This document shows positions 399 to 29,549 of a stretch of 64,000 nucleotides of DNA, piece by piece (position 1 is the stretch's first letter; every line of letters begins with the position of its first letter). This DNA comes from Candidatus Latescibacterota bacterium (GTDB taxonomy: Bacteria > Latescibacterota > UBA2968): assembly GCA_965204375.1 (NCBI GenBank), contig OZ241986.1, forward strand, positions 3,040,001 to 3,104,000, in the 5' to 3' direction. A program made the translations under genes and the position numbers. The notes below the pieces were generated by a model, which saw only the letters and a list, made by a program, of their open reading frames with translations, made no database searches and was not told the DNA's origin.

Positions 399-1760
399 AT
401 GGTTGAACAATCACATCTATTAAACGACGAAACAATATTGCATTTTATTGCGCGGGGATATTGCGTAGTCAAAACAAGCGTCGCACCACGCATTCACGCA
501 CAAATACTGACAGATGCAAAAAAAGTCATGGCAGAGGGAAACCCGGGCAATGACATATTGCACGCCGCACCGGGCTTGCGCGAAATTTTTGACGACGAAG
601 CAATGGTCGGCGCGCTATCGAGTATCCTCGGCGATTCTTATGTGATGCACTGTCACAGGCATTGCCATCGCAATACCGCAGGCACAGAAGGTCGAAATTT
701 TCATCAGGATGGTTCAACGCGTCGCTTCGCTGGCTGGAGCCGACCGTGGCGGCGGCACCATCGCCCGCGAACAGTCATGGCGATTTGTTATCCACACCAG
801 ACGCCGATTGAAATGGGACCCACTGGCATAATGCCCGGAACACAGTATTACAGTGCAAAACCGCAAAATGAGTTCGATTACGAATTCCCATTTGCGGTTG
901 TCGATCCCGGCGATGTATTGCTCGTACATTTTGATTTATGGCATCGCGTATCCAGCAATACGAGCGACCGCGACCGGTACATGATGAAATTTTTATTCAA
1001 ACGCACAGAAGAGCCAACAGCACCGAGCTGGCATACCGCATCGCATTTCGATCCCGATTTCGACACCCTTGCCCACCGGATAAAACCCGACCATCCATCC
1101 GACGTCTTATTGCGCCATCCCCTCGTATGGGAATTTATATGGCGCTGGATGCGCGGTGAACCTCTGCCTGAGTGGGATGATGACGCACCCGTCTCTGTGG
1201 ATGACATGATGCACAACCTGAACAGCGATGATCCAGGTGTCGTGCTAAACGCGACATACGCCCTGGGACGATTGGGCAAACGCGCAGTGCCCACATTGAT
1301 GGACGTATTACTGGGACCAGATGAAGCACTTCGAGAACAAGTACCCGCAGCACTATCAGCAGCAGGTGGCCACGCGGTAGATCCAGTCGTCCAAGCATTG
1401 ACACACTCGGACGACTGGGTGCGCGCAACGGCTGCGGACACTCTGGGCGACATTGGCTTACCAGCCCTCGACGCACTACCCGCCATTCGCAACGCACTCT
1501 CAGACCGCGACGACTGGGTACGCCACAATGCCACGCGCGCATTGACCATCTGGAGCAAAGCTGCCGAAATCACTCGCGATGACTTGCTCACGGCCTTAAA
1601 AGACGCCGAGCCTTTCGTCGGCTTCAATGCATTAACAGCTCTGGAACACATGGACCGCGTTGACGATGCACAGGTACTGCCATTGCTAAAAGCAATGCAA
1701 AACCACAAACACAGCCGACTGCGCTACCAGGTAAACGAAATGCTACAGCGCGTTGCCTGA
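399..1760 (+). CDS. Phytanoyl-CoA dioxygenase (PhyH)-family protein fused to C-terminal HEAT repeats
   Basis: HQD motif and distal His (DLWH) of Fe/2OG dioxygenases; repeated 'L.D.D.WVR..A..LG' HEAT units; RBS AGGAGG. Confidence 0.85.
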   Translation: MVEQSHLLNDETILHFIARGYCVVKTSVAPRIHAQILTDAKKVMAEGNPGNDILHAAPGLREIFDDEAMVGALSSILGDSYVMHCHRHCHRNTAGTEGRNFHQDGSTRRFAGWSRPWRRHHRPRTVMAICYPHQTPIEMGPTGIMPGTQYYSAKPQNEFDYEFPFAVVDPGDVLLVHFDLWHRVSSNTSDRDRYMMKFLFKRTEEPTAPSWHTASHFDPDFDTLAHRIKPDHPSDVLLRHPLVWEFIWRWMRGEPLPEWDDDAPVSVDDMMHNLNSDDPGVVLNATYALGRLGKRAVPTLMDVLLGPDEALREQVPAALSAAGGHAVDPVVQALTHSDDWVRATAADTLGDIGLPALDALPAIRNALSDRDDWVRHNATRALTIWSKAAEITRDDLLTALKDAEPFVGFNALTALEHMDRVDDAQVLPLLKAMQNHKHSRLRYQVNEMLQRVA

Positions 1761-10313: not shown

Positions 10314-11779
10314 TGGGTATCTCTCCATTTTTCACATTTTTGCGAAGCCCTGTTTACATTCTCATCGCATTTTTTGCATATCTGTTGCTCGCTCATGTCT
10401 GGATGTCTTCCCAAGCAGATCGAATCTCTGTATTCGTTTTGTTTTTCTTTCTTAAATTTTGGGGTGGGATAATCGGCAGCATCGTAGGGGAGAACCAGTA
10501 TCGGATGCTCACATGGACCCTGCCACATTTTCGCAAGCGTCTAATGATCTGGTCGATAATTGTCGGGTTGTTTTCCGTTATAGCGTGGACAGTCGCGCTG
10601 ACTTCTGCACCCCTCAATGCGTCCTGGTCAACGATTTTGCTGGTAAATTTGGGCCTCTATTGTATCGGATTTGCCCTTTCAGGAGGTTGGAGTTTTGGTA
10701 TCCAGCACCCCGGATTGGCTTCCAGGTGCCGGAGCCTCATCGTATTCCTGGGACTGGCATTAGCCTATTTGTGGCCAGGAGTGCTCGCTTTTGGAGAGCA
10801 ACAAAAATTGGGATTGGCTCTCATTGCATTCGTTATCGCAATTGGAGCTTATTATTTTGCCTTTAACCAGACAACTTTTCGGAGGAAACCATTTTCTTTA
10901 GTTCTTCCAGTGCGTTTAACCCTTTTTCCTCCAACCCAGGAGCTTTGGAAAAAAAATAGATTGAACAGGCGAAAGGCGAGTACCAGGGTATGGCATCTCG
11001 ATCACATCGGTACAGGCACCTTCAATTGGCTGCGTGCTGGTCAGTATGAAAACAGCGGTGCAGGCAGGGGGAGATGGCCGCTATGGCCGCTGTCCGCGTT
11101 TCCTGCAGTATTGGCAATGGTATTCTTTTTTTTTGGCATGACGACAGAGTTGTTCGGGATGTTGGGTCGATCTCCTTATGATTTTGAGACGCTATCAAAA
11201 ATGATTTATCACATGATTTTTTATTTTGACTCCAAGGTCGACGGGGATATATTCGCTACAGTGTTTTTCGGCATTTGTATGCATCTTTTTATTCCTCCTA
11301 CTTCACTGAAAAGAGGGTATGTCTATCCACTTTCTCGCACCCAGCGGATGTGGATTCGGTATAGCAGTTTGCTGGTGCAAAATATTTCTTTTTTTGTAGC
11401 ATCTATTCTGGTATTGGGCGTTCTGGGCATCCTGGCGGGAGCCAAGATCGGGTTTGTGTCTGAAGGAGAGGTTTCCCTGGGAATACTCTGTGTCCTTGGG
11501 TGGTGGGTCGTTCTTTTTCCAATATTTCAGTGGTTGCAAGTCAAATATGACCTGTATAATTTTCAAAGAACGCGGCAACAGATAGGCGGGATGGTTTTTC
11601 TGATCCTGGTCCTGATTTTGTCTCTTGTATTCACTGGTTTTACCAGTCTGATGCGTATCCGATATCCCGATCTTGTACTGACCTATGAAGTGCCGATCCT
11701 TTTTGTCTGTTTTATTCTCTTGCAATGGTTCTTATTGGCTCGGCTCAAACGGTATTATGCCACACAGGATCTGGTTTAG
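10313..11779 (+). CDS. Polytopic membrane protein, probable ABC permease
   Basis: Two blocks of about six hydrophobic helices; TAATG overlap with the ATPase stop. Confidence 0.7.
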   Translation: MGISPFFTFLRSPVYILIAFFAYLLLAHVWMSSQADRISVFVLFFFLKFWGGIIGSIVGENQYRMLTWTLPHFRKRLMIWSIIVGLFSVIAWTVALTSAPLNASWSTILLVNLGLYCIGFALSGGWSFGIQHPGLASRCRSLIVFLGLALAYLWPGVLAFGEQQKLGLALIAFVIAIGAYYFAFNQTTFRRKPFSLVLPVRLTLFPPTQELWKKNRLNRRKASTRVWHLDHIGTGTFNWLRAGQYENSGAGRGRWPLWPLSAFPAVLAMVFFFFGMTTELFGMLGRSPYDFETLSKMIYHMIFYFDSKVDGDIFATVFFGICMHLFIPPTSLKRGYVYPLSRTQRMWIRYSSLLVQNISFFVASILVLGVLGILAGAKIGFVSEGEVSLGILCVLGWWVVLFPIFQWLQVKYDLYNFQRTRQQIGGMVFLILVLILSLVFTGFTSLMRIRYPDLVLTYEVPILFVCFILLQWFLLARLKRYYATQDLV

Positions 11780-11903
11780 TAACCGTGAGTTTTAAAGTGT
11801 GCGATGCGTTCAACGCAAATTTCGTAGGACAAAAAGCATAATTTTTGTACAATTATGCACATAAGCATTTGTTTTCTCATAGGTTTTTTAATTTTTTATA
11901 CAC

Positions 11904-11990
11904 GGTGATTACTCCCAACGGTAGAGCAGTTGGGCTTCTTGGCGGTCAAGCCACCTGACTTTGTAATCCCAAAGTCAATATGTTTATCGC
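11904..11990 (+). ncRNA. Candidate structured, tRNA-like RNA element (not a canonical tRNA)
   Basis: Closing stem GTGAT/ATCGC encloses hairpins CCCAAC-GGTAGAGCA-GTTGGG, CTTGG-CGG-TCAAG and TGACTTTG-TAATCC-CAAAGTCA. Contains tRNA D-loop-like and Thr anticodon-arm-like words but no T-loop or CCA. Confidence 0.35.
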
Positions 11991-12067
11991 AGCATTGAGA
12001 TCTCTGTCTGCTGTATAGCCACACTTTTTGCACACGTATGTATTTCTATACCTAAAAAATAACGTGT

Positions 12068-15000
12068 ATGTTTGAAAACGGAACGATTCTCGACAAAAAA
12101 TATCAAATCCAGGCGCACCTGGGATCCGGGGGCATGGGCGAAGTCTATCGGGTTTTGGACCTGGAGCAAAGTCAGGAGTGTGCGCTCAAAATTTTGAATA
12201 CCATGGTGGATCAGAAGGCTGTGCATCGCCGCTTTCACAGAGAATTTCAAGTGTTGAACAGATTCCAGCACCCGCGCCTGGTACGCACGTATGCCTGGGG
12301 ATTTGCCGAAGAGCGTCCCTATTTTACAATGGAATATTTGCCCGGAAATACATTAGAAAAAATAATTGCCGATCATGCACGTTTAGGGCAATTCCGGACG
12401 TCTCACTTTTTCGATTTGATACAACAAATTGCTGATGGATTGGCATATATCCACGCGCAGGGTGCGGTGCATCGCGATCTCAAACCGTCCAATATTATGG
12501 TTTTGGAAACAGAAGAGGGGATCGAAACCACGATTCTGGATATGGGACTGGCCAAACTCAGGCATCTGCATAGCGTTTCCATTACGCAGACGGGCACAGC
12601 CATTGGCACGGCAGAATATATGTCGCCAGAGCAGGGTAAGGGACTCTGGGTGGATCACCGGTCGGATATATACTCATTGGGTGTGATTTTATACGAGATG
12701 CTCACGGGTGTACCACCCTTTTCTGGACAAAACCCAATATCTGTTATCATGAAGCATATTCGCGAGTCCCCGCCACCCCTGGATGAAGTCAATATCGCGA
12801 TTCCCGAACAGACGCAACAAATTGTGCTGAAGTTGCTGGCAAAGGAGTCTGTTGATCGCTATCAGTCGGCAGAAGAGGTGGTACGAGCCTTACCATCGAG
12901 ATTTGTACTACCCGATGACATGCAGCGCGATGTGCAAAGAAAAGTCATGCGGCCGCAATTTGTCGGGCGCGAATCCGAAACGAAGATATTGCGCGCCATG
13001 CTGAAGGATGTACAGGCTTGCGAGCAACGCGTGGTTCTGATCTCTGGTGAGTCTGGTGTGGGAAAAACGAGACTAATTGAGGAACTATTGGGCGACGCTT
13101 TGATCCATGACTTTCTGTGTTTGAAAGGCGCAGGCCAGGAAGAGGGCGGACAAATATACGGTGCGTTGATCAATGCTTTTCAAGGAATGACTGATTCGAT
13201 GGAAAGGGTTCCCGATTCTGTAGAATCAGACAAATTTTCTATTATGGAGCACTGGTTGCAGTTATTAAAGCGTCTGCAGCAGAAACAACCCATTGTGTTG
13301 TGTTTGGAAGATATTCAATGGGTGGATGAATTGACCCTGGAATTTTTACAGTATGTATTGCGTGATCCAGAACCGTGCCCGTTCTTATTATGCCTGACTT
13401 GTCGATGGTCTAACCTGGAACCGCTTCCAGAAGAAATTAAAAATTTTATACACAGCAATGCATTTGCCAAGGCGACTCAGATTCGGTTGAAAAATCTGCC
13501 ACAAGAAGCATCGGGATATTTAGCGGCGTCAATGTTGGGTGAACGATCCATACCGTCCGATGCATTGCAAACTCTATTCAGAGAAACGGGTGGGTTGCCC
13601 TTGTTTGTCGTGGAGGCGGTGCGGACACTGGTGAATGCCGACGTGGTTCGACAGAATGTGCCCGGCGATTGGCAGTGGGGAGAATTTCCCGAAACTTTGT
13701 TATCCGATGATATTTCAGAGATTTTGCACAGGCGCATAGCTACCCTTCCTGTGGTGCAACAGCGGGTGCTGGAATACGCCTGTGTTTTTCTAAATGACTT
13801 TTCTTTTGAGTTATTGGCAGCGGTTTGGCGCGGTGATGAATTAGAACTACTGGATATGCTGGACGACCTGATTGCAGAAGGACTTTTAGCACCTTGTGGA
13901 GAAACTGAAGATCAATATCGATTTTCACAGGAATTGTGTCGGCAGGCAATTTACGATCACATGCAAGATGTAAGACGGCGTCTGTTACATCGAGAAATTG
14001 GCAATATTTTGGAAAAGACGAAAGACGCGGAAGAATTGATAGAAGAACTGGCGGATCATTTTGCGGCAGCAAAAGAACGAGATAAGGCTGTGAAATATAC
14101 GCTTCTATCAGGCAAAAAGGCATTGGAAAAACATTCTTATCGCCAGGCATTGATGAGATTTGAGGCTGTACGGGACTGGGTAGCGAATGACGCCTTTGAA
14201 TCACCTGCAGATACTATTGATTTTTTGTGCGATTATGCAGATACGCTGCGTAACTGCGGTCAGCACAATAAAGCATTGGAACTTTTAGAGGAGGCACAGG
14301 CGTTATTGCCCGATGATCGGAAAGATTTGAAAGCGCGTATTTTGAATCGTGAAGGTGTTATTTACAGCTTGCTTCAACACAGGGAAATTGCTGAAGAATA
14401 TATGCTGGAGGCATTGCAGCTTTATCGTGAACTCGGTGATCTTGAGGGTGAAATTCAGACATTGGATAGTTTGGTTTATTTATGCGATGTGTCAGAACGG
14501 CACGAAGAAGCAATAGCGTATATGCGTCAAAAAATAGAGAAACATCATATGCTGGGAGATCCGCAAAACAGAGCTTTTATACAAGGGCGAGAAGGCCAGA
14601 CTGCATTAATGGAATTTCGCTTTGAGACAGCCAAAGAACATCTAAAAGCTGCAGTAAAAACATCTCAAAGACTTGGATTTGAACACTATCGTATTAGGGC
14701 ACTCAATTTACTTCAAAGAGTATATTTTTATCTCGGTGATCTCAATCGAGCAGAAGCCCTTTGCCATGAAGTCATCTGTGAGTGGCAAAAACGAGGCGAT
14801 GTGTATTGGGAAGCAATGAATCTTCTCTGGTTGGGAGAGTTAGCACTGGAACGAGATGATTTTACAGAAGCATTGGAATATGCCGAGATTTCGGTAGAGA
14901 GATTTTTGGAAACACCGCGAAGAGATTATGTCTATCGCGCTTATGCGATTGCGGCAACGGCTGCGGCGAGAATGAGAGATACAGAGACAGCACTGGAATG

Positions 15001-16870
15001 GGCAGAAAAAGCCAGTGAAGGTGTACAGCAAACATCGGGTATGTACACGGGCATATTGCCCCTGGTGCATTGTGGTATTGGTGTTGCTTTGGCTAAAGCA
15101 GGACGGATTGCTGAAGCTGAAGAGGCTTTTGAGCAGGCGATTGAATGCCGAAAAGAATCCAAAGGCGACAACTGGGCGCGTGCGCTACTGATGGCAGGGG
15201 AGTTTTATCTCAATTGCGATGATATGGCAAAAGCACAAGCACATCTCAAAGCGGCAAAACAGGCGTTTGAAGAAATGGAAATGTCTTATTTTCAAGAGAA
15301 AATACAGGTATTATTGAATCAATCAGGGGAATCTTCTCACGACAGTGATACTGCATCCGATTCTGAGATTTCAGTCGATACGTTGTCCGTTGATCGCTTG
15401 CGCTTGCTTTACGATATGAGCCGGGAATTGACAACAGAGCGCGATGTCAAAGTATTATTGGATCGAATTTTGGGTAATTTGTTAGCTGTTTATCCAGCAG
15501 AGCGCGTGCTTGTTGCGATTAAAAATGAGACCCCAAAAGGCTTTGTGGTCGATGCTGTGCGCTACCACAATGTAGAAGCAGATGATGCAGAAGCTCTGAG
15601 TCGGGGTATTATTCGCTGCGTTATTGAGACAAATGAGCCCATTTTGAGCATTGATGCCCAGACAGACGACAGGCTCAATCAATATCAAAGCGTAATAGAC
15701 TATCACATTCGGTCTGTATTGTGCGTGCCCGTATTCCATCTGAATGAAGGTGTGATGGGTGCGCTATATGTGGATCATCGCGGTATAGGCAACGCATTTT
15801 CTCAAGAAGATCAGACATTTTTACAGGCATTTGCAAATCTGGTGGGTGTCGCACTGGTCAATGCGAGAATGTACGAACAATTGGAAGAAAAAGCGCGATA
15901 TTTGCAGCAACAGGTCGAAAAACGATATCAGCTTGACGATCTGGTCGGGCAAAGCGATGCTATGCAGGCGATCTACCGGCTTATAGAACGCGCTGCGAAG
16001 AGTGATATTCCCGTGCTTATTCAAGGTGAAACAGGTACAGGCAAAGAATTAGCTGCGCGCGCCATACACTACAATAGTACACGCAAAGACCAGCCATTTT
16101 TGTCGCAAAATTGTGCTGCTCTTTCACCAGATTTATTGCAGAGTGAGTTGTTTGGGCACAAAAAAGGCGCGTTTACAGGAGCAACTGAAGATCATAAGGG
16201 GATTTTTGAAGCGGCTGATGGCGGTACGGTTTTTCTCGATGAAATCGCCGATGCTCCCCCACCGTTGCAAAGGAGTCTGTTGCGGGTGTTGCAAGAAGGA
16301 GAGGTGCGGCGCGTGGGCGAAACAGTGAATCGCGCAGTGGATATACGCATTATTGCAGCGACCAATCGAGACTTAAAACAGGAAGTTGCAAAAGGCTTTT
16401 TCCGCGAAGATTTGTATTATCGGTTGCACGGGATTCAGATCGATATGCCGCCTTTGCGAGAACATATTGAAGATGTGCCGTTATTGGCCGAACATCTGCT
16501 CACCCGAGCAAAAGAAGATGCAAACAAGTCGGTTGGGGGACTGACAGTGGGTGCAATCAGGGCGCTCACAAGCTATGACTGGCCTGGCAATGTGCGCGAG
16601 TTGGAGAATAAGATTCGGCGTGCGGTTGCATTGGCAGAAGAAGGTGGTGAAATCACGTCCAATTTGTTTTCGGAAGCTGTCGGCTACACGACGTCGGATG
16701 TCCCTGTCGGATACCAGGGACATTTACAAGATCGTGTTCGGGAATATGAGAAATGGTTGATTATGGATGCTCTCGAGAAATACGAGGGCAATATTACGCA
16801 TACGGCTAAAGAATTAGGGATAACGCGCGCTGGATTGCAGAAAAAGATCAATCGTTTGGAGTTGAGATAG
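12068..16870 (+). CDS. Fusion: Hanks Ser/Thr kinase - STAND/AAA_16-like ATPase - TPR - GAF - sigma54 AAA+ activator - Fis HTH
   Basis: Kinase: GSGGMG, ALK, HRDLKPSN, DMG, GTAEYMSPE. ATPase: FVGRE..GESGVGKT, LEDIQW, TGGLPLF. Helical repeats. GAF: RSVLCVP..GALYVD. bEBP: GETGTGKE, ELFGH..GAFTGA, FLDEI, WPGNVREL. HTH: GNITHTAKELG. Confidence 0.93.
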   Translation: MFENGTILDKKYQIQAHLGSGGMGEVYRVLDLEQSQECALKILNTMVDQKAVHRRFHREFQVLNRFQHPRLVRTYAWGFAEERPYFTMEYLPGNTLEKIIADHARLGQFRTSHFFDLIQQIADGLAYIHAQGAVHRDLKPSNIMVLETEEGIETTILDMGLAKLRHLHSVSITQTGTAIGTAEYMSPEQGKGLWVDHRSDIYSLGVILYEMLTGVPPFSGQNPISVIMKHIRESPPPLDEVNIAIPEQTQQIVLKLLAKESVDRYQSAEEVVRALPSRFVLPDDMQRDVQRKVMRPQFVGRESETKILRAMLKDVQACEQRVVLISGESGVGKTRLIEELLGDALIHDFLCLKGAGQEEGGQIYGALINAFQGMTDSMERVPDSVESDKFSIMEHWLQLLKRLQQKQPIVLCLEDIQWVDELTLEFLQYVLRDPEPCPFLLCLTCRWSNLEPLPEEIKNFIHSNAFAKATQIRLKNLPQEASGYLAASMLGERSIPSDALQTLFRETGGLPLFVVEAVRTLVNADVVRQNVPGDWQWGEFPETLLSDDISEILHRRIATLPVVQQRVLEYACVFLNDFSFELLAAVWRGDELELLDMLDDLIAEGLLAPCGETEDQYRFSQELCRQAIYDHMQDVRRRLLHREIGNILEKTKDAEELIEELADHFAAAKERDKAVKYTLLSGKKALEKHSYRQALMRFEAVRDWVANDAFESPADTIDFLCDYADTLRNCGQHNKALELLEEAQALLPDDRKDLKARILNREGVIYSLLQHREIAEEYMLEALQLYRELGDLEGEIQTLDSLVYLCDVSERHEEAIAYMRQKIEKHHMLGDPQNRAFIQGREGQTALMEFRFETAKEHLKAAVKTSQRLGFEHYRIRALNLLQRVYFYLGDLNRAEALCHEVICEWQKRGDVYWEAMNLLWLGELALERDDFTEALEYAEISVERFLETPRRDYVYRAYAIAATAAARMRDTETALEWAEKASEGVQQTSGMYTGILPLVHCGIGVALAKAGRIAEAEEAFEQAIECRKESKGDNWARALLMAGEFYLNCDDMAKAQAHLKAAKQAFEEMEMSYFQEKIQVLLNQSGESSHDSDTASDSEISVDTLSVDRLRLLYDMSRELTTERDVKVLLDRILGNLLAVYPAERVLVAIKNETPKGFVVDAVRYHNVEADDAEALSRGIIRCVIETNEPILSIDAQTDDRLNQYQSVIDYHIRSVLCVPVFHLNEGVMGALYVDHRGIGNAFSQEDQTFLQAFANLVGVALVNARMYEQLEEKARYLQQQVEKRYQLDDLVGQSDAMQAIYRLIERAAKSDIPVLIQGETGTGKELAARAIHYNSTRKDQPFLSQNCAALSPDLLQSELFGHKKGAFTGATEDHKGIFEAADGGTVFLDEIADAPPPLQRSLLRVLQEGEVRRVGETVNRAVDIRIIAATNRDLKQEVAKGFFREDLYYRLHGIQIDMPPLREHIEDVPLLAEHLLTRAKEDANKSVGGLTVGAIRALTSYDWPGNVRELENKIRRAVALAEEGGEITSNLFSEAVGYTTSDVPVGYQGHLQDRVREYEKWLIMDALEKYEGNITHTAKELGITRAGLQKKINRLELR

Positions 16871-16881
16871 ACGTTGAACAG

Positions 16882-17004
16882 GTGCATCCAACTGTATGCA
16901 GCAGTGCATCCAGCTATATGCACTTGTATATCCTTATATAATTCAGATATTTATGTCTATTTTATTTAAAACAGGCGATTACAGGTGCATCCTGCCGTAT
17001 GCAC
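16882..17004. promoter_or_regulatory. Three palindromic candidate enhancer (UAS) sites GTGCATCC-N5-TATGCA
   Basis: GTGCATCCAACTGTATGCA (16882-16900), GTGCATCCAGCTATATGCAC (16904-16923) and GTGCATCCTGCCGTATGCAC (16985-17004), all TGCAT-N8-ATGCA. Confidence 0.75.
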
Positions 17005-17061
17005 TTGCGCCTGAATCTCGCAGATGTAGCACAAACAATTCTTAAATTTTATCTCCTTGTT

Positions 17062-17074
17062 TTTCAATCACTTG
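17062..17074 (+). promoter_or_regulatory. IHF-like binding site
   Basis: TTTCAATCACTTG versus consensus WATCAANNNNTTR (one mismatch), in AT-rich DNA between the UAS sites and the sigma54 promoter. Confidence 0.5.
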
Positions 17075-17112
17075 AGCACATTCAAGTGTTTTTTTTATGA
17101 TAGGGAGATCTT

Positions 17113-17128
17113 TGGCACGGATCTTGCA
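17113..17128 (+). promoter_or_regulatory. Sigma54 (RpoN) -24/-12 promoter
   Basis: TGGCAC-GGATC-TTGCA, an exact match to TGGCAC-N5-TTGCW. Confidence 0.9.
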
Positions 17129-17182
17129 CTATAAAAAGGACAAATCGTTATGGCACAGAATTTTCCATTAAAGGAGGATAAC

Positions 17183-17362
17183 ATGGCAACACGACGCAAG
17201 TTGACTTTGATCAATGGGACGATAGATCAAGAAGGTAGCATCCTTATGTATCAGACTGTGGATAGTTTTGAAATTGGGAGCTGTGAACCTGGTTGGGTAA
17301 CCGTTCCCCCCCTGCCCTTTCCAGATGATGACGATTGGGACGATTTTGAACAGGCTGAGTGA
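17183..17362 (+). CDS. Putative RiPP precursor peptide, 59 aa (MATRRKLTLINGTIDQEGSILMYQTVDSFEIGSCEPGWVTVPPLPFPDDDDWDDFEQAE)
   Basis: RBS AAGGAGG at 17171-17177; first gene after the sigma54 promoter; 21 nt upstream of an RRE-rSAM-SPASM gene. Confidence 0.8.
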   Translation: MATRRKLTLINGTIDQEGSILMYQTVDSFEIGSCEPGWVTVPPLPFPDDDDWDDFEQAE

Positions 17363-17383
17363 TTTACTTTTAGGGAGTGTGCT

Positions 17384-18814
17384 ATGCTATGCATTCAGAA
17401 ATGTGACATGCATCTTTTTCAAACTGAAGAGCAAAAACAGCCTGTTGCCTATCAGGTTGAGACGGGTCTGTTTTTTGAACTGGACCCCCTTTTCAAATCA
17501 ATTTTAGAATGTTGCGAGGGCTTGTCTGCTTCACAGGTTGTCCAGATGCTGGTCGGCCAATACGAGGCAGAAGAAGTTGTCGAAGCCATCGAGGAACTGG
17601 CTCAGGTGGGGTTGATTTCAGATGGTGCACTACCTGTAGTGCCCAATGTGCCGACGACAGAAGGGGTGGCAGCCTGTGGCGTATCGCAGACAGACCGTTT
17701 GCAGGTGTCGTTGCACGTTTCGCATACGTGCAATATTCAGTGTGCTTATTGCTTTGCCCACGGTGGGGATTACGGCGGCAAGGCCATGCTGATGCAACCC
17801 GATGTTGCCAAGCAAGCTATTCGATGGATCATCACCGAGGCTCAGGTGTTCGGGCGTTGCCAGATTGATTTTTTTGGCGGGGAGCCGCTTTTGAACTTTC
17901 CACTGTTGCAGAAGCTCGTTCCGTTTGCCAGGTCTCTGGGAGCGCGATTAGGTGTGCAGGTGGGATTTGGCATTGTGACCAATGGCACGTTGTTGACCGA
18001 AGAGATGAAGCAGTTTTTGGTTGATGAAAAGTTTCAGATTAAGGTCAGCCTGGATGGTGGGCGTAAAACACAGGACCGGATTCGCAAGTTTCACAATGGT
18101 TCTGGTACTTATGATGTTGTGGCAAAAAATGTGAAAAAGCTGACTGCTGAGGCACCTGAGCGCGTGTATTTGCAAGCCATTATGACCGCGTATGATATGG
18201 ATGAAGATCGGATTGCCGATGAGTTGCGTTCTCTGGGTAGTGAAAATGCGCTCATCGGTCCCGCTGTTGTCTCCCCGGATGCGCCTTATGCCATTCGAGA
18301 AGAACACCTGCCCGTTTTGAAGCAACAGATTTACAAGCGGAGCAGGCGTGCGCTCAAAGCCATTTTAAACGGTGAAGAGAGTGAGGAGTTTGATCCGAGG
18401 ATTCAAAAATTGCTGACGCGCCAGAAATCGTGTCACGGGTGTCTCGGCGGTAAGCAGTATCTGGCTGTTGCAGCAGACGGGTCGATTTATTTTTGCTCGA
18501 GTTTGGCCGATGCACCCGAGTTTAAGATGGGTGATGTGTTTGCGGGTATTGACCGCGAAAAGCAGCAGCATTTTGACACTCAGTTCAATGTGAATAATCG
18601 TCCTGAGTGCAAAACCTGCTGGGCGTGCAACTTGTGTGGTGGCGGATGTCTTTGGGATGCGCGCACGACGACGGGTGATCCGATGTATCCCAACCCGGTT
18701 GCTTGTGAACAGACGCGCTATCGCTATGAACTGGCGATGGAGATGTGTATGGAAATTGCAGAAGTGGATGCGTCTTTGTTGCAGCGACGATATGATCTGG
18801 AAGTGGTATCATAA
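17384..18814 (+). CDS. Radical SAM/SPASM peptide maturase with N-terminal RRE (PqqD-like) domain
   Basis: CNIQCAYC, FFGGEPLLN, TNGTLL and VSLDG; SPASM C..DGSIYFC and CKTCWACNLCGGGC..C; N-terminal ~80 aa ending EAIEELAQVGLI; RBS AGGGAG. Confidence 0.92.
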   Translation: MLCIQKCDMHLFQTEEQKQPVAYQVETGLFFELDPLFKSILECCEGLSASQVVQMLVGQYEAEEVVEAIEELAQVGLISDGALPVVPNVPTTEGVAACGVSQTDRLQVSLHVSHTCNIQCAYCFAHGGDYGGKAMLMQPDVAKQAIRWIITEAQVFGRCQIDFFGGEPLLNFPLLQKLVPFARSLGARLGVQVGFGIVTNGTLLTEEMKQFLVDEKFQIKVSLDGGRKTQDRIRKFHNGSGTYDVVAKNVKKLTAEAPERVYLQAIMTAYDMDEDRIADELRSLGSENALIGPAVVSPDAPYAIREEHLPVLKQQIYKRSRRALKAILNGEESEEFDPRIQKLLTRQKSCHGCLGGKQYLAVAADGSIYFCSSLADAPEFKMGDVFAGIDREKQQHFDTQFNVNNRPECKTCWACNLCGGGCLWDARTTTGDPMYPNPVACEQTRYRYELAMEMCMEIAEVDASLLQRRYDLEVVS

Positions 18815-18845
18815 GCAAAGAAGTTCTGATGAAAAACTGGTATCC

Positions 18846-18904
18846 AATACGGCATCCAAATGGGGATGATAACGCCCTGTTAGATGCCGTTTATTTTGTT
18901 TCTT
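18846..18904 (+). terminator. Intrinsic terminator after the rSAM gene
   Basis: ACGGCATC...GATGCCGT long hairpin followed by TTATTTTGTTTCTTT. Confidence 0.6.
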
Positions 18905-18933
18905 TAGGTGGGAGTCTCGACAGATTGTGAGTG

Positions 18934-19926
18934 ATGGGAGAAATATATCAATCAAAAAAATCCGGCCTCAATAAATGGTCGCTCATTGGACAGCATTCCT
19001 CACTCTTAGACGTGCAAAAGCGCGCGTACCGCGTGGCGAATAGCGAATTGCCCGTCAACATCAGTGGAGAAACTGGCACGGGCAAAGAATTACTCGCCCG
19101 TTATATCCACGAAATGAGTCACCGCAACAGGGGACCCTTTGTAACCGTTGACTGTGGCGTACTCTCTTCTGAAATGTCTCGCAGCGAGTTATTTGGACAT
19201 ATTCGAGGTGCTTTCACCGGCGCCAGCGAAACGCGCACCGGACTGGTTGAATCTGCCCAGGGCGGCACACTATTCCTCGATGAAGTAGGCGAATTGCCCT
19301 CCAACCTCCAGTTGCAATTGCTACGCCTGGTACAGGAACAGGAATTTCGCCGGGTAGGCGAAGCATCCATGCGCCGGTCCGACGTGCGCTTAATCACTGC
19401 GACACACTGCAACTTGCGAAAAATGGTGCGAAAAGGAACATTTCGAGAAGACCTCTATTACCGCTTAAGTGTCGTACCTCTAAAATTGCCACCCCTGCGG
19501 AAGCGACTGAGCGATTTACCGCTTTTAGTCGCGCATTTTTGCCAGGAAATGAAAGGATACAATCGCGCGTTTTCCCCCGAAGTGATTCAAAGGATGTCGC
19601 GTTATGCCTGGCCTGGCAATGTTCGGGAACTACAACACGAAGTCGCCCGATTGATGGTCATGGCCGAAGGTAAAATTATCCGCGTATCCGACCTGCGCCC
19701 TCGCATTCGAGGAGCAAAAGCCGAGGTTGATGTATTTGACCTGCCGTTCAAAGAAGCCAGACAACTCGCGAACAGCCGGTTTATGCGAGAGTATCTCGAC
19801 AGAGCTTTGCAGCGAACACAGGGCAATGTAACCCAGGCAGCGCAACAATGCGGAATTGGCCGACAGTATTTCCAATTGCGTATGTCCGAACACGGGCTAA
19901 AGTCGGCATATTACAAGAAAAAATAA
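18934..19926 (+). CDS. Sigma54-dependent activator (AAA+ and Fis HTH) lacking an N-terminal sensory domain
   Basis: GETGTGKE, SELFGH..GAFTGA, FLDEVGE, WPGNVREL and GNVTQAA HTH. The AAA+ domain starts about 15 aa from the N-terminus. Confidence 0.92.
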   Translation: MGEIYQSKKSGLNKWSLIGQHSSLLDVQKRAYRVANSELPVNISGETGTGKELLARYIHEMSHRNRGPFVTVDCGVLSSEMSRSELFGHIRGAFTGASETRTGLVESAQGGTLFLDEVGELPSNLQLQLLRLVQEQEFRRVGEASMRRSDVRLITATHCNLRKMVRKGTFREDLYYRLSVVPLKLPPLRKRLSDLPLLVAHFCQEMKGYNRAFSPEVIQRMSRYAWPGNVRELQHEVARLMVMAEGKIIRVSDLRPRIRGAKAEVDVFDLPFKEARQLANSRFMREYLDRALQRTQGNVTQAAQQCGIGRQYFQLRMSEHGLKSAYYKKK

Positions 19927-19954
19927 CACCTCTCCCATCAGGTGTTAAACGATA

Positions 19955-19988
19955 AAAAACGTCAATGGGTTTTTCCATTGACGTTTTT
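19955..19988. terminator. Bidirectional-type terminator hairpin
   Basis: AAAAACGTCAATGG-N6-CCATTGACGTTTTT perfect inverted repeat. Confidence 0.7.
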
Positions 19989-20015
19989 CCTTGCAGGGTG
20001 TTTCTTGAGCGTATC

Positions 20016-23000
20016 ATGCAATACATCGCCGACATACACCTGCACTCGCGCTTTGCCCGCGCAACCAGCAAAACCCTGAACCCCGAAAACCTGTATCGGT
20101 GGAGCCTCATCAAAGGTCTGACCGTGGTGGGCACCGGAGACTTCACCCATCCGGTATGGTTTGAAGAATTGCGCGATCAACTCGAACCCGCCGAAGAAGG
20201 GTTATATCAATTGCGCCCAGACCTCAGGCGAGGCATAGACGCCGAGTTGCCACAAGCCTGCCGAGGACAAATGCGATTTGTGCTCTCGGTCGAAATCAGT
20301 CTCATCTACAAAAAAAACGACAAAACCAGAAAAATACATCACGTCGTCACAATGCCGAGTTTTGACGCTGCGGCGCGTTTAAATGCGCGACTCGGCGCAA
20401 TAGGCAACCTGAAATCCGATGGACGCCCCATTCTTGGCCTGGACAGCCGGGACCTGGTAGAAATTTGTCTGGAAGCGTGTGACGAGGTACTCTTCATACC
20501 CGCCCACATCTGGACCCCTCATTTTGCGGTCCTGGGCGCGAGTTCCGGATTTGACACCCTCGAAGAATGTTTTGAAGACATGCTCCCCCACATCTTCGCC
20601 GTAGAAACCGGCCTGTCCTCCGACCCGCCGATGAACTGGCGCCTATCCATGCTGGACAACTACGCAATCGTCTCCAATTCAGACGCCCACTCCCCGCAAA
20701 AACTCGCCCGAGAAGCCACCTGCTTTAACACAGAATTATCATTCCGCGGGATGTACGACGCATTAAAAGACCGCGACCCAACGCGCTTCACGGGCACCCT
20801 GGAATTTTATCCCGAAGAAGGCAAATATCACTTTGACGGACACAGAAAATGCGATATATGCTGGAAACCCGTACAAACCCTCGACGCAAACGAAATCTGC
20901 CCGGTATGCGGCCGCAAATTGACCGTTGGCGTACTCCACCGCGTTGAAAAACTCGCAGACCGCGCAGAAGGCGACCGCCCCGACGTGGCGATGCCCTTTG
21001 AAAATCTGATCCCACTATCGGAAATCATCGGCTCAGTCCTCCAGGTGGGACCCACCAGCAAGCGCGTACAAACCGTGTACGAGCAAATGCTATCAACACA
21101 CGGGGCAGAATTGAAAATCCTGCGCGAACTGCCCATCGAAGAAATCGCAAAAACCGGAGACCCCCTCATCGCCGAAGGCATCCGACGCATGCGCGAAGGA
21201 GAAGTTCACATAGACCCGGGATACGACGGCGTGTACGGAAAAATTCAAGTCTTCTCCGACGAAGACCGCGCACGTCTGAGCGGACAGGAATCGCTATTTA
21301 ACATACCAGCCGAGGAGCCTTCGAAAGAGAAAGCAGAGAACGCGAGCCTGGACAAGAACACAGAAAACTCAATAGCCAAAGATCCTCCCTTCACACTTCC
21401 CACTTCTCACTTCACACTTCTCACTTCCCACCAGCAAGCAGCCGTAACAATGGAAAAAGGTCCCGTCATCGTAACAGCGGGACCCGGCACAGGAAAAACG
21501 CGGGTACTCACCCATCGCGTAATCGACCTGATCCAGAACCGCGGCGTATCGCCAGCTTCTGTGATGGCCGTAACATTTACCAATCGCGCCGCAACTGAAA
21601 TGTGGGAGCGCATTGTATCACTATCCTCGGGAGGAGAAGAACTCGTCCCAATGCGCGTGGGCACATTCCACCGCCTATCACTGGACCTCCTGCGAGAATA
21701 CGCCCCCGAGCGATTGGGCGCAATAGCCGACCGAGGAGAAGCCCGTGCCGTCTTACAGGAAGCAATCGCCGACATCGACACCGAAATATCGGTCGATGAC
21801 GCGCTCTCCCAGATCTCGCTATGCAAAGCCCAGGGACATGAAACACCCGACATCACCGACACCGAACTCCAAACCATTTACACAAATTATCAACATCGCC
21901 TGACCGCTTATGACCTCATGGACTTTGACGACATCTTGCTCATCCTCCACGACGTGCTCTGCGGCGACATTTTACAAACAGTCCAGGCGCGTTTTTCCCA
22001 TATACTCGTCGATGAATTTCAGGATGTCAACGCCGTACAGTACGCACTAATTCAAAAATTAGCTGGGGATGGCTCGGGCCTCTTTGTCATCGGCGACCCC
22101 GATCAAGCCATCTACGGTTTTCGGGGCGCGAGCGCGGGATATTTTACACAATTAAAAGCGGACTTTCCCCACGCGAACGAAGTAATCCTACAACAATCAT
22201 ATCGCTCCACCCCACAGATCATTTCCGCAGCATCCAGCCTGCTTCGCGGGCGATCGTACGTCCCCGTAAGAGAAAACGGTCCTAAACTGAGCGCCTTATC
22301 CACACCGGGCGAAACCGGCGAAGGCATCGCCATCGTAGAAGAAATCTCCCGAATGGTTGGCGGCGCAGATTTATTGCAAGCCAACGAAGAAGGCAAACGC
22401 AGCCTGGACGACTTCGCCGTCTTATTCCGCACCGGACGCCAGGCAGACGCCCTGGAAGCGTGCTTCTTACAGGCGGGGATTCCCTACCGCGTCGTCGGGC
22501 AGAAAAATTATCTGGACGCGGCCTCAGTACAGCATGCACTATCGTTTTTTAAGTGCATCCTGCGGGATGACATTTCCAGCACCCCAACCACCAGAGATAT
22601 AACCGACCTCCTCTCCATCCCCGCATTTGACCCCGGACGGGAAGCGCGCGCATCAATACGCCAGCAAATTCAAAACAACGCGCTATCGGACGCTGTGCAG
22701 GAAAAATGGGACGCCGCGATGGAAGCTGTAGATCGCTTCCGCGATGAAACATCTCACCTATCGCCTTCCGAACGCATAGCAAAATGGACAGAAGAATTTG
22801 CGACATCAGACGATATCGACCTTGAGCGATTGAGCCTATTGGCTCAGGGCGTGGATACCATCGCAGAGCTATTGGACATCATCACCCTGGGACAGGATGG
22901 CGATTTCGTACGTCGTGGAAAAATTGCGCGTCCCGAAGCCGTCACACTCATGACCTTGCATGCGTCCAAGGGCCTGGAATTCCCCGTGGTATTTATCTGT

Positions 23001-23249
23001 GGGGTTGAGGAAGGATTGATCCCGCACGCCGAAGCGGATATCGAAGAAGAGAAGCGCCTATTTTTTGTCGGCATAACCCGCGGACAAGACGAAGTGATCT
23101 TGACCCGCGCCCGAAGCCGCAGGCGATTTGGCGAACGCATCGCACCCGAAATATCGCGCTTTGTAGCCGATATCCCCGAAGACGTCATCGACTTTGTCGA
23201 TCTGCGAACTGAAAGACGCAAACCCGCCGAACAACTATCCCTATTTTAA
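20016..23249 (+). CDS. Endonuclease Q-like PHP domain fused to UvrD/PcrA-type SF1 helicase
   Basis: ADIHLHS, GTGDFTHP, PAHIWTP, ETGLSSDP, NSDAHS, GKYH.DGHRKC and CPVCG; then AGPGTGKT, TFT, VDEFQD, GDPDQAIYGFRGA, TLHASKGLEF and FVGITR. Confidence 0.92.
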   Translation: MQYIADIHLHSRFARATSKTLNPENLYRWSLIKGLTVVGTGDFTHPVWFEELRDQLEPAEEGLYQLRPDLRRGIDAELPQACRGQMRFVLSVEISLIYKKNDKTRKIHHVVTMPSFDAAARLNARLGAIGNLKSDGRPILGLDSRDLVEICLEACDEVLFIPAHIWTPHFAVLGASSGFDTLEECFEDMLPHIFAVETGLSSDPPMNWRLSMLDNYAIVSNSDAHSPQKLAREATCFNTELSFRGMYDALKDRDPTRFTGTLEFYPEEGKYHFDGHRKCDICWKPVQTLDANEICPVCGRKLTVGVLHRVEKLADRAEGDRPDVAMPFENLIPLSEIIGSVLQVGPTSKRVQTVYEQMLSTHGAELKILRELPIEEIAKTGDPLIAEGIRRMREGEVHIDPGYDGVYGKIQVFSDEDRARLSGQESLFNIPAEEPSKEKAENASLDKNTENSIAKDPPFTLPTSHFTLLTSHQQAAVTMEKGPVIVTAGPGTGKTRVLTHRVIDLIQNRGVSPASVMAVTFTNRAATEMWERIVSLSSGGEELVPMRVGTFHRLSLDLLREYAPERLGAIADRGEARAVLQEAIADIDTEISVDDALSQISLCKAQGHETPDITDTELQTIYTNYQHRLTAYDLMDFDDILLILHDVLCGDILQTVQARFSHILVDEFQDVNAVQYALIQKLAGDGSGLFVIGDPDQAIYGFRGASAGYFTQLKADFPHANEVILQQSYRSTPQIISAASSLLRGRSYVPVRENGPKLSALSTPGETGEGIAIVEEISRMVGGADLLQANEEGKRSLDDFAVLFRTGRQADALEACFLQAGIPYRVVGQKNYLDAASVQHALSFFKCILRDDISSTPTTRDITDLLSIPAFDPGREARASIRQQIQNNALSDAVQEKWDAAMEAVDRFRDETSHLSPSERIAKWTEEFATSDDIDLERLSLLAQGVDTIAELLDIITLGQDGDFVRRGKIARPEAVTLMTLHASKGLEFPVVFICGVEEGLIPHAEADIEEEKRLFFVGITRGQDEVILTRARSRRRFGERIAPEISRFVADIPEDVIDFVDLRTERRKPAEQLSLF
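21387..21431 (+). repeat. Heptamer tandem repeat (CACTTC[ACT]) x6 in the EndoQ-UvrD linker
   Basis: cccttca cacttcc cacttct cacttca cacttct cacttcc cac. Confidence 0.85.
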
Positions 23250-27455: not shown

Positions 27456-27728
27456 TCACGCATCCAACGCTTGCTCAAATGCCTCAAGGCTGGACACCTG
27501 AATCGCCGTACGATGCAACTGCTTCAGACGGTGCAAATCTTCAATAGCGGCAATGCGTGTGGATAGAGGGTGCGCTTCGCGCAAGTCAAATCGAATCTCC
27601 AACACTTCGAGGATATCTTCGAGCGTGCTTTTTCTTTCGCCCTGCTCAATACCTTGCTCAATACCTTGCTCAATACCCAGTTGCTTAATGTATTGTGCAA
27701 ATGATGATTCGCGCATAATAGCATCCAT
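27456..27728 (-). CDS. Putative intragenic in-frame small protein (RpnS-like antitoxin), 90 aa
   Basis: Internal CAGGAGGGTCTT-ATG, a strong SD in frame at codon 212 just before the GIEQ repeats. Confidence 0.6.
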   Translation of the reverse strand: MDAIMRESSFAQYIKQLGIEQGIEQGIEQGERKSTLEDILEVLEIRFDLREAHPLSTRIAAIEDLHRLKQLHRTAIQVSSLEAFEQALDA

Positions 27729-28361
27729 AAGACCCTCCTGTAATAGAATACGATTGATCAGTATCGGATCATACTCTAACCCACTCAATATCATCAACCT
27801 ACCCAAAAAGTCAACCTTTATTGATTCATCCACCCGCAGAGCATTCGTCGCGTCAACACAGTGACGCAACCAGGCCTCTGAATCTATCCCAGCAGGATGT
27901 TTCATCAAGGGGACGAATGGAAACAAGCCCGAAGGTCCGCCATCTATAATCTCCTGTCCTTCTATCTCACTCAGCCGAACCACTGTGTATTCTATCACAA
28001 CGTGACGGCCGGATATTTCCTGAATAAAGTGCCCCGGATCGCGCCGACCTGCATTGCGCCGCAAATAGATCACACTGGAATAAATCGGCAGGTCATGCTG
28101 CTCTATCGCACGTATAATGTAGCCTGCCATGCGGAGCGGCATAGATGGATCGTCAGTGGTTTGAAACTCGTGATGTATCAATGCCTCCTTGCCCGCGATA
28201 TGGACGCGGATGAGGCTATCGGTATATCGTGTTTCAACCGTGGTTTGCTCTGTGTCGAGTATGTCGAGGACTTCTACATCGTCCTGTCCAAATGTGAGTC
28301 GGATAAAGTCTTTTGGATAGGTCTGGATGAGATGTTTGGAGATGGTGTCATATTCGGCCAT
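27456..28361 (-). CDS. Rpn-family recombination-promoting nuclease / putative transposase (PD-(D/E)XK)
   Basis: YD...K.L, R.TD.L, H.EFQT...MP.RM..Y; C-terminal GIEQ repeats and helical tail. Confidence 0.85.
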   Translation of the reverse strand: MAEYDTISKHLIQTYPKDFIRLTFGQDDVEVLDILDTEQTTVETRYTDSLIRVHIAGKEALIHHEFQTTDDPSMPLRMAGYIIRAIEQHDLPIYSSVIYLRRNAGRRDPGHFIQEISGRHVVIEYTVVRLSEIEGQEIIDGGPSGLFPFVPLMKHPAGIDSEAWLRHCVDATNALRVDESIKVDFLGRLMILSGLEYDPILINRILLQEGLMDAIMRESSFAQYIKQLGIEQGIEQGIEQGERKSTLEDILEVLEIRFDLREAHPLSTRIAAIEDLHRLKQLHRTAIQVSSLEAFEQALDA

Positions 28362-28677
28362 GTGGAATGCCCTGAGTCTGATGGGTGAATTTTATCAGAC
28401 ACAAAGCAAATATCGCGCCAACATCTCAGAATGGCGCGATAAATTATATGGACAGAAGCTCAAGTGCCCCTCATCATGCTTTTAATATGCTATATTGCGC
28501 CCTTAACTTGAATGTACGGATCGCCTTTGGAGGCACATGCAAACGGAACGCACCTGAATATAAAAGTGTACGTTTTGATCCATGAATGATGGGCTATCGT
28601 GAAAGATTTTTACATTAAAAAAATAGCGGTCTGCCGAGAATCGGCCTCCCGCGCTGTGCTCAATGGATTTTTTTATC

Positions 28678-29549
28678 TCATCCATACGTCCACTCACGTT
28701 GAAACCCCTGCTGTTCTGCAATTGACATGAGAGGTTTCAATGTTCTGTGATAGGCACATTTCAATTTTTCAAAATCCAGAGTGTCCTCGGGCTTATCAAT
28801 ATGCAAGTCGGTAATATAAGGCTCCACATCCTTTTCCCATTTGTTATTGCTAAAACTGTCTCGGGCGATAGATAGCGCAGCGCAGTAAGTCTCAGCTAAG
28901 CGGTCAATATATGTTTCCGATGGGAAATGATCACTTTTAGATCTATTTGCATGGGGATCAACGGGAATTAGATTCCACAACTGATTGTGCGCTACAAATT
29001 TCCAGGGCAAAAAATGATCCAAATCATAACTGTGATCCAGATTGTTTTCCGTGTAAATACACCGGATATCCGTTTCGTCAATAACAGTATCCCAGAATCT
29101 TCGCTGTGCATTGAGAGACTCCCTCCGATCTGGAGGAAACAATTTCCGCGTCACAGCAGGAATACCCGGATTGCGTCGCTGCATATAATCTGCCCAGTAC
29201 CACAGTGTCCAACCCTCAAGAATTGTTAGATGTTGCTCTAAATAAGCGATCCAGTCTGGATGCAAAAAGATACATTGTCAATAGGTGGGATCAATTCCAA
29301 AGCTGAAGAAATTTTGTCCTGAGTACCAAATGAAAGTCTGAAAAAGACCTGTGGATACCAGGCAGTAACCAGCATCTCAATCTCTATATCTTTCAAAAGG
29401 ATACCGTTATCAATCTCTAAATTTCTATCCTTTAGCAAAGTCAGTAGCGAAAAGAAAAAGAGATACTTGTATGAATTGGTCGTATGCCTGAATAATCCGC
29501 TCAGTGTCGCAATATCAAGTTGATCTGAATGTGGTAATTGCTGAGTCAT
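28678..29549 (-). pseudogene. HNH endonuclease-domain gene split by a frameshift and probable internal deletion
   Basis: N-terminal piece (TTNSYKYLFFFSLL) and C-terminal piece (IFLHPDW...CIYT...DLDHFLPW...LWNL.P....NRSKSD) lie in different frames joined near 29270. Confidence 0.7.

Follow-up and report, generated by a model that had tools for sequence, protein, structure and literature searches.

What does a very large bacterial activator respond to when the genes that it appears to control encode a small peptide and an enzyme predicted to modify it? The question is raised by a locus in 64,000 nucleotides of Candidatus Latescibacterota bacterium (assembly GCA_965204375.1, contig OZ241986.1, positions 3,040,001 to 3,104,000 of the forward strand; this whole stretch is termed the window, and all coordinates refer to it). 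A preliminary description had placed there a giant kinase-ATPase-TPR-GAF activator of the bacterial enhancer-binding protein (bEBP) type, three palindromes, a -24/-12 promoter, a 59-residue open reading frame (ORF) with a Shine-Dalgarno sequence, a gene for a radical S-adenosylmethionine (SAM) enzyme with a SPASM domain and a recognition element (RRE) for precursors of ribosomally synthesized and post-translationally modified peptides (RiPPs), and a second, sensor-less bEBP. All of the features it named are where it had put them, all on the plus strand. Judged by comparison with related loci, the actual unit is a self-contained ~7-kb cassette (~11790 to ~18845), made up, in this order, of the giant activator gene, the three palindromes, a terminator-like hairpin, the -24/-12 promoter, the peptide gene, and a gene for a CteB-like radical-SAM/SPASM enzyme with a putative RRE. 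We think it reasonably probable that this unit is a duplicable cassette for a regulated, modified peptide, and that the tetratricopeptide repeat (TPR) region of its own activator senses the core of that peptide. The parts of the cassette are as follows.

11790 to 12067, plus strand: left end of the cassette and region upstream of the giant gene; boundary approximate, from alignment to a cassette-free site of the same genus.
12068 to 16870, plus strand: giant activator, 1600 residues, with (by Pfam) a Hanks-type Ser/Thr kinase, a P-loop NTPase (AAA_16) of the STAND class (signal transduction ATPases with numerous domains), a TPR sensor, a GAF domain, a sigma-54 AAA+ domain and a Fis-type helix-turn-helix (HTH).
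14315 to 14917, plus strand: TPR sub-segment of the giant, residues ~750-950, which co-varies with the peptide core (sliding-window correlation).
16736 to 16855, plus strand: C-terminal HTH_8 of the giant, residues 1557-1596 (Pfam).
16883 to 16900, plus strand: palindrome 1, TGCATCCAACTGTATGCA, exact TGCAT-N8-ATGCA, candidate enhancer.
16905 to 16922, plus strand: palindrome 2, TGCATCCAGCTATATGCA, exact TGCAT-N8-ATGCA, candidate enhancer.
16986 to 17003, plus strand: palindrome 3, TGCATCCTGCCGTATGCA, exact TGCAT-N8-ATGCA, candidate enhancer.
17069 to 17097, plus strand: terminator-like hairpin with T8, between enhancer and promoter (terminator scan).
17113 to 17128, plus strand: -24/-12 sigma-54 promoter, TGGCACGGATCTTGCA, exact consensus TGGCAC-N5-TTGCA.
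17183 to 17362, plus strand: predicted precursor peptide, 59 residues, an ORF with AAGGAGG at 17171-17177, 5 nt before the ATG at 17183.
17282 to 17302, plus strand: peptide core, Cys34 and six hypervariable residues (CEPGWVT), from family comparison.
17384 to 18814, plus strand: predicted radical-SAM/SPASM maturase with a putative RRE, 476 residues, CteB-like (domains by Pfam), starting 21 nt past the peptide stop.

We scanned species-representative genomes and retrieved 34 related loci, in records of Latescibacterota, Gemmatimonadota and Poribacteria. Among these we distinguish 27 near loci, of type A (12, including the window) or type B (15), and 5 distant loci; individual loci are cited by L numbers. 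A giant homologue lies just upstream of the radical-SAM gene in 31 of the 34 loci, as it also does in the second copy in the same genome, and a related peptide gene precedes the enzyme in 31 of 34. This co-occurrence, which the preliminary description had proposed to look for, bears out its view of giant, palindromes, promoter, peptide and maturase as one conserved unit. Two loci without the giant (L006 and L032) have too little flanking sequence, and in L034 it is missing. The gene order is kept down to ~40% identity of the giant and ~50% identity of the enzyme, in the five distant loci, each of which retains repeats, a different hairpin with a T-run, a GG-N10-GC promoter and then the peptide. 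The enzyme is present in 25 of 168 genomes of the phylum and in 15 of 20 other genomes of the window's genus, with one to three copies each. The genome, a single 6.34-Mb contig, carries a second cassette whose enzyme, peptide and giant are 94%, 83% and 82% identical to those of the window. This copy (L043) is of type B, lies ~550 kb away (G000:C1:3598000-3617500, cassette on the minus strand), encodes the core CEPGWIA where the window has CEPGWVT, and is followed by a ~300-residue gene with a GxGxG motif and then a DDE transposase gene.

The peptide combines strongly conserved and strongly variable parts: a conserved leader (KLTLINGxxDxEG), a single Cys34, the hypervariable core, an invariant VPPLPFP and an acidic DDDDWDDF tail. 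It matches no Pfam or NCBIfam model. Its family comprises 264 protein clusters (E 0.01 or better), which are named only 'hypothetical protein' where the source gives a name. Among the best 120 of these 264 members there are 78 distinct cores; the core is fixed at seven residues (Cys plus six) before [VI]PxxPFP in 119 of 119, and 106 members have one cysteine and 14 have two. The ratio of nonsynonymous to synonymous substitution rates (dN/dS) is 0.98 for the six residues after the cysteine, 0.27 for the leader and 0.10 for VPPLPFP. Tyr23 and Ser28 are nearly invariant. The VPPLPFP and acidic DDDDWDDF(E/D)Q tail (17303-17359, residues 41-59) recalls, we presume, the proline-rich and acidic-tryptophan short linear motifs of eukaryotes.

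The variable part of the peptide is matched by one part of the giant. In 20 full-length giants, residues 801-900 are the most variable, with a pairwise identity of 0.66-0.68 vs ~0.85 elsewhere, and the TPR segment has the highest dN of the protein. When distances between cores were compared with distances between 100-residue windows of the giant, r reached 0.42-0.46 for residues 751-900 and did not exceed 0.17 in any other part (20 loci); 24 loci gave a peak of r = 0.37 at residues 801-900, with a permutation p of 0.0003 for the maximum over windows. Enzyme and RRE distances gave r = 0.00-0.01 with core distances. The peak was replicated in 17 independent peptide-giant pairs, matched in a protein database by the size of their source contig: for the window 801-900, fixed a priori, r was 0.57 (p = 0.0002) and the rest of the protein was near zero, and the subset of 11 pairs on contigs below 130 kb gave r = 0.42 (p = 0.0014). 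Mutual information (MI) with a core position was strong (MI z > 5) at 21 columns in 39 pairs, and 20 of these columns lie inside residues 751-900. In the tree of residues 1-560, types A and B separate (98% support). In that of residues 781-920, the monophyly of type A is rejected (approximately unbiased test, p = 0.0026), and sisters from different types carry like cores, namely L008 (CRPFPVS) with L011 (CSPTPIA; support 100/99) and L016 (CPSGSPV) with L010 (CPSGGIG; 96/87). The model of the TPR superhelix (mean predicted local distance difference test score, pLDDT, 90.6) resembles peptide-binding TPRs, those of LGN and of pheromone-bound Rap (template modeling score, TM, 0.61-0.65 for Rap), a likeness that is generic for TPRs. 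The co-variation favours a peptide that would be sensed by its own activator, and it lends support to the earlier suggestion of a product that acts as ligand or signal and not as antibiotic.

The same circuit could operate without any sensing of the peptide, if the giant responds to an unrelated cue through its TPR, GAF or kinase domain and the co-variation is a by-product of recombination and population structure. The anatomy of the cassette fits either reading, recombination between paralogues clearly occurs, as the mosaic domain trees show, dN/dS in the TPR window is below 1, and the TPR tree is poorly resolved, with 13 of its 21 inner branches open. However, linkage should then tie the core to the HTH (~0.4 kb away) and the RRE (~0.1 kb), and for both r is ~0; the core is tied instead to a segment 2.4-3 kb away, with the same narrow peak in the independent set, and the two cross-type sister pairs share core classes. 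We consider this account unlikely.

A co-varying contact may also serve another purpose, as the co-variation indicates contact and not what the contact is for. The giant could be a biosynthetic partner as well as a regulator, with the TPR region docking the core for phosphorylation by the kinase or presenting it to the enzyme. The domains of the giant in Pfam are Pkinase (residues 12-271, E 7.8e-49), AAA_16 (297-436, E 5.3e-25), TPR (720-1027; TPR_12, E 8.8e-18), GAF (1128-1263), Sigma54_activat (PF00158, 1292-1458, E 1.2e-73) and HTH_8 (1557-1596), with no membrane segment in this map; a MalT-like TPR model also matches (E 3.5e-9), at 36.8 bits, under its cut-off of 45. The catalytic motifs of all three enzymatic modules are intact in 25 of 25 full-length giants. 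For the kinase these are the lysine (ALK/AVK/VLK), H[RK]D (24 HRD, 1 HKD) and D[ML]G, with SPE in 24 of 25; Walker A and B are retained in both the STAND and the bEBP modules of all 25, and the sigma-54 loop reads GAFTGA in 22 and GSFTGA in 3. Kinase motifs kept in every giant and the nearly invariant Tyr23 and Ser28 of the peptide speak for such a biosynthetic role. Against it, we know of no RiPP pathway that uses a bEBP-fused kinase, and the portion of the literature available to us, in listings and abstract openings, mentioned none. Moreover, STAND proteins with a repeat sensor on the C-terminal side are built for signalling. A part for the giant in biosynthesis thus appears quite improbable.

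Another possibility is that the peptide leaves the cell, as an exported pheromone or antimicrobial that the enzyme matures and whose transporter is either unlinked or adjacent, and is sensed after re-import or at the envelope; the cores would then be pherotypes or variant toxins. Secreted RiPP libraries and pherotype peptides typically have hypervariable cores of fixed length with conserved sequence on both sides, and the TPR fold is like that of pheromone-bound Rap receptors. The flanks of the cassette differ between types: GntR, ABC (ATP-binding cassette) ATPase and 12-TM (transmembrane segment) permease genes upstream and small bEBP and PHP-UvrD helicase genes downstream in type A; E1 dehydrogenase subunits and a family 2 glycosyltransferase (GT2) upstream and a ~300-residue gene downstream in type B. 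A GntR-ABC pair stands just upstream in all type-A loci, and distant loci have an OppA-like SBP_bac_5 gene beside the giant, on its upstream side. Yet the ABC pair is part of the backbone, being present at a cassette-free site and lacking from type-B loci; it was ruled out as a dedicated exporter. Comparison of related loci shows no leader-cleaving protease, signal peptide or exporter that stays with the cassette; inside the unit there is likewise no protease or exporter, as the preliminary description had noted; and the domain map of the giant shows no membrane segment. Export in any of these forms strikes us as improbable. Other flanking genes include a GT2 gene 0-3 genes upstream of the giant in type-B and distant loci (L025, L026, L029, L033) and not in type A. 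The ~300-residue gene (c4) after the enzyme in type-B loci looks by eye like a class-I methyltransferase, and its only match is TylF at E 0.096. Distant loci (L025, L026; L028, L033, L034) have either a 6-bladed beta-propeller gene (DUF5128/DUF4934) downstream of the enzyme or two radical-SAM genes in tandem.

The palindromes show a second case of matched change, now between the DNA and the C-terminal end of the giant. Exact TGCAT-N8-ATGCA occurs within the 64-kb window only at the three listed sites. Palindromes occupy these places in all 12 type-A loci, and type B also has a site at each of the three, with other half-sites. The recognition helix GLQKK goes with TGCAT-N8-ATGCA (12/12 type A), GLHKK with TGTAT...TACA (type B), GLYKK with TGTAAAC-N4-GTTTACA (L004) and SLYRK with TGTATCAT-type sites, and the three positions are the same for all of these sites. 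Because the half-site changes together with the recognition helix of the giant, the palindromes are most likely the giant's own predicted binding sites, and the same joint change argues for insulation between the paralogous cassettes of a genome. As for the promoter, the GG and GC elements do not vary among the near loci (27 of 27), and a match to 9-10 of 11 promoter positions directly follows the hairpin in 5 of 5 distant loci. The genome encodes RpoN (193.7 bits) and has 23 bEBP matches, 19 of them strong. Between enhancer and promoter, the hairpin at 17069-17097 has a conserved stem and a variable loop in the 27 near loci, and a different hairpin with a T-run takes the same place in 5 of 5 distant loci; the hairpin probably ends the transcript of the giant and insulates the sigma-54 promoter. 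The integration host factor (IHF)-like site of the preliminary description (17062-17074, one mismatch) overlaps this hairpin, and such one-mismatch matches occur in the window at chance frequency (59 found vs 65 expected), so that the site is not established. No Rfam family reaches threshold within 11700-20000. A second exact sigma-54 promoter consensus, TGGCACAGAAATTGCT, lies at 33143-33158 on the minus strand, ~100 nt upstream of an 818-residue MacB/FtsX-type permease gene (30586-33042, minus strand); another bEBP, perhaps the small one, might act there.

The small bEBP and a hairpin lie just downstream of the maturase gene.

18849 to 18902, plus strand: hairpin (18849-18890) and T-run after the radical-SAM gene, backbone (fold).
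18931 to 19926, plus strand: sensor-less bEBP, 331 residues, backbone neighbour, with an AAA+ domain from residue 18 and intact Walker A/B and GAFTGA.

In one relative of the same genus the site is empty: permease, a hairpin of the 18849-18890 type, small bEBP and helicase follow one another without the cassette, and the alignment with the window breaks a few bases past the permease stop codon at 11779, which sets the limits of the cassette at ~11790 and ~18845. The picture of the empty site rests on this one genome, since in the other four cassette-free genomes neither permease nor helicase lies within 1.5 kb of the small bEBP. The preliminary description had counted the second activator as part of the system. 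It adjoins 12 of the 27 near loci, all of type A, and none of the 15 type-B loci has it as a neighbour; its HTH bears no relation to that of the giant; and an orthologue 71-87% identical is found in 5 of 5 same-genus genomes without an enzyme match, where the next-best bEBP reaches at most 45%. Together with the empty site, these observations rule it out as a member of the cassette. It might still use the palindromes, alone or in mixed rings with the giant, since the exact palindrome type is seen in the 12 loci where the small bEBP follows and is absent from the 15 without it. This correlation is confounded with the split between A and B paralogues, however, and in type B the three positions are likewise occupied, by sites whose half-sites go with the HTH of the giant; 1-6.6 kb of other genes come between enzyme and small bEBP in 4 of the 12 type-A loci, and its unrelated HTH and its persistence without the cassette count here as well. 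We regard its action at the palindromes as very improbable. As for the terminator that had been assigned to the operon after the radical-SAM gene, the hairpin folds no more than modestly better than shuffled sequences (z -1.17) and is also present at the cassette-free site; an operon terminator is not established. As read from these flanks, the small bEBP, the GntR-ABC genes and the post-enzyme hairpin are chromosomal backbone and not cassette. Farther along, 38 nt past the small bEBP, a gene for a 1094-residue protein that joins a TIGR00375-family part, at the N-terminus, to a UvrD/PcrA-type helicase (19965-23249, plus strand) adjoins it in 11 of 12 type-A loci, L014 being the exception. Downstream of the locus, a low-GC stretch (0.44-0.47) holds a gene for an HNH endonuclease and a weak match to a YhgA-like transposase (27456-29265, minus strand).

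The enzyme matches Radical_SAM in Pfam (E 8.7e-16) and SPASM at 24.2 bits, above the cut-off of 21.5. Its PqqD-like N-terminus scores 21.7 bits, below the cut-off of 23.4; the alignment with CteB, which starts at residue 22, covers the N-terminal domain of CteB, and many homologues of the enzyme carry PF05402. The cysteines of the CX3CX2C motif (C116, C120 and C123) and seven SPASM cysteines (C353, C371, C409, C412, C418, C422 and C441) do not vary among 25 sequences. Of the solved structures, that of CteB, the thermocellin ranthipeptide maturase, is closest (5wgg; E 9.2e-60, residues 22-452). NCBIfam scores, each with its cut-off, are 257.4/425 for SCIFF (TIGR03974), 251/453 for the QhpD type, 245/519 for nif11 and 226/340 for PapB. 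Homologues form 61 clusters at 39-91% identity (E 2e-70 or lower), after which identity drops to 36% or less, and at that level the proteins with names are SCIFF maturases. By analogy we infer a new subfamily, predicted to be of the thioether type, that probably cross-links the peptide.

Parts of the stretch are found in sequencing runs labelled sponge and coral metagenomes. Contigs of one coral DNA run and of three metatranscriptome runs, 85-99% alike, cover the enzyme gene, and one contig from an RNA library spans promoter, peptide and enzyme. Gaps in cover and depth of these RNA-library contigs are not interpretable.

Several points weigh against a peptide-sensing cassette as we describe it. 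The co-variation comes from 24 and 17 related loci, the 17 replication pairs were joined solely by the identical size of their source contigs, and the permutation tests ignore shared ancestry, the flat remainder of the same proteins being the only control. Averaged over windows, the dN/dS of the TPR segment stays at 0.27-0.37, below 1, and shows no positive selection at this level. In the tree of residues 781-920 the giant of the window is not resolved beside its paralogue with the same core. The giant gene is split or interrupted in 5 of the 27 near loci (L012, L013, L018, L022 and L035), where its matches fall in two frames or have an internal gap, perhaps through decay of the copies or through indels in the assemblies. 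On the side of the chemistry, every NCBIfam maturase model scores the enzyme below its cut-off and the peptide has one cysteine vs six in SCIFF peptides, which makes the type of cross-link a guess; the acidic tail, a possible source of an Asp acceptor, is missing in distant loci. Finally, the RNA-library contigs give a weak hint that the cassette is transcribed in relatives, weak because DNA can be carried over into RNA libraries.

We propose the following mechanism for the peptide-sensing cassette. The giant would bind the palindromes through its C-terminal HTH, as suggested by the joint change of HTH and site, and inputs to its STAND, TPR, GAF and kinase modules would permit assembly of the AAA+ ring, so that the giant opens sigma-54 RNA polymerase at the promoter and the peptide-radical-SAM transcript is made. 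The enzyme would hold the conserved leader by its RRE and, by analogy with CteB, PapB and QhpD, most likely join the invariant Cys34 by a thioether to a carbon in some residue close by. Recognition of the hypervariable seven-residue core would fall to residues ~750-950 in the TPR region of the giant, each cassette being a matched peptide-sensor pair in a feedback loop, and differing pairs of HTH and enhancer would keep the paralogous cassettes of a genome apart. The invariant Pro-rich and acidic tail may serve a shared second partner. We go one step further only tentatively, with a reading that seems possible and somewhat short of an even call: each cassette would be a private channel in which the radical-SAM-modified peptide is the cognate ligand of the TPR sensor in its own kinase-STAND-sigma-54 activator, core and sensor would co-diversify like pherotypes, and paralogues would be insulated both at the sensor-core and at the HTH-enhancer level.

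New in this analysis are the limits of the cassette, the placing of the small bEBP outside it, and the two co-variations, of HTH with enhancer and of sensor with core. A full-text literature search, judged by listings and abstract openings, returned no description of this system and, to the same extent, none of a RiPP class with such a precursor or regulation, in agreement with the preliminary description. The peptides form an undescribed large family that comes with a maturase subfamily, in a phylum that has no cultured model, and the regulator unites four signalling modules (kinase, STAND, GAF and bEBP) in a single protein. The locus offers a testable case of receptor-ligand co-evolution in which paralogues within one genome are natural swap experiments, and its matched variants of HTH and enhancer would serve directly as orthogonal sigma-54 switches. 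If the peptide is the ligand of the activator, RiPP chemistry would be tied to intracellular or autocrine gene control and not to antibiosis; if the private channel is real, a RiPP would act as the autoinducer of a sigma-54 switch, in uncultured Latescibacterota with relatives in sponge and coral libraries.

Each half of the cassette resembles known systems and departs from them. In precursor and maturase it is closest to the SCIFF/ranthipeptide systems (CteA-CteB, 5WGG, TIGR03974), with which it shares a small precursor gene directly before a radical-SAM/SPASM maturase (with a putative RRE in the window), the best solved full-length relative and best NCBIfam match, and the CX3CX2C motif with seven SPASM cysteines. 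The enzyme is, however, ~30-33% identical to named SCIFF maturases vs 39-91% inside its own group, the precursor has one cysteine where SCIFF has six and shares no family model with it, and the system of the window, known here from sequence alone, is under predicted sigma-54 control by a dedicated giant activator. The Cys-to-Asp/Glu thioether maturases PapB (freyrasin) and QhpD (quinohemoprotein amine dehydrogenase) are the next-best NCBIfam matches, and the near-family peptide offers an invariant cysteine and a poly-Asp tail as possible acceptor; the cysteine and the first Asp of the window peptide are 14 residues apart, whereas the PapB motif has 3. The TOMM kinase/cyclase fusion (TIGR03903), encoded beside NHLP/Nif11-type RiPP precursors, likewise places a kinase and AAA_16/TPR giant next to a RiPP precursor and maturase, and matches our giant at E 5.5e-89. 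The giant nevertheless scores 299.4 bits against a cut-off of 705.75, has no cyclase domain in Pfam or NCBIfam, ends in a sigma-54 activator and accompanies another class of maturase.

As a regulator, the giant shares with GAF-containing bEBPs (NifA, FhlA, NorR) the order of GAF, sigma-54 AAA+ with GAFTGA and Fis-type HTH, along with palindromic candidate enhancers upstream and a -24/-12 promoter. It differs in falling under every equivalog cut-off (NifA 392 vs 529) and in ~1100 extra N-terminal residues, which hold a Ser/Thr kinase that looks active, together with a STAND NTPase and a TPR sensor. Among STAND regulators, MalT and mycobacterial PknK have TPR sensors, and PknK has an N-terminal Hanks kinase as well. 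The giant has the same P-loop nucleotide-binding domain (AAA_16) followed by a MalT-like TPR region, with the kinase in front as in PknK, but its output is a sigma-54 AAA+ activator and not a LuxR-type HTH, and its proposed ligand is a peptide encoded next door. The proposed mode of sensing resembles that of the RRNPP receptors (Rap, NprR, PlcR, PrgX), in which a cytoplasmic TPR binds a short, fast-diversifying, genetically linked peptide, and the fold matches that of pheromone-bound Rap. In contrast to these receptors, the giant has no RRNPP match in Pfam or NCBIfam and its peptide shows no evident export signal or Opp dependence; the peptide is probably modified by an enzyme, and the receptor would be a kinase-STAND-bEBP of 1600 residues.

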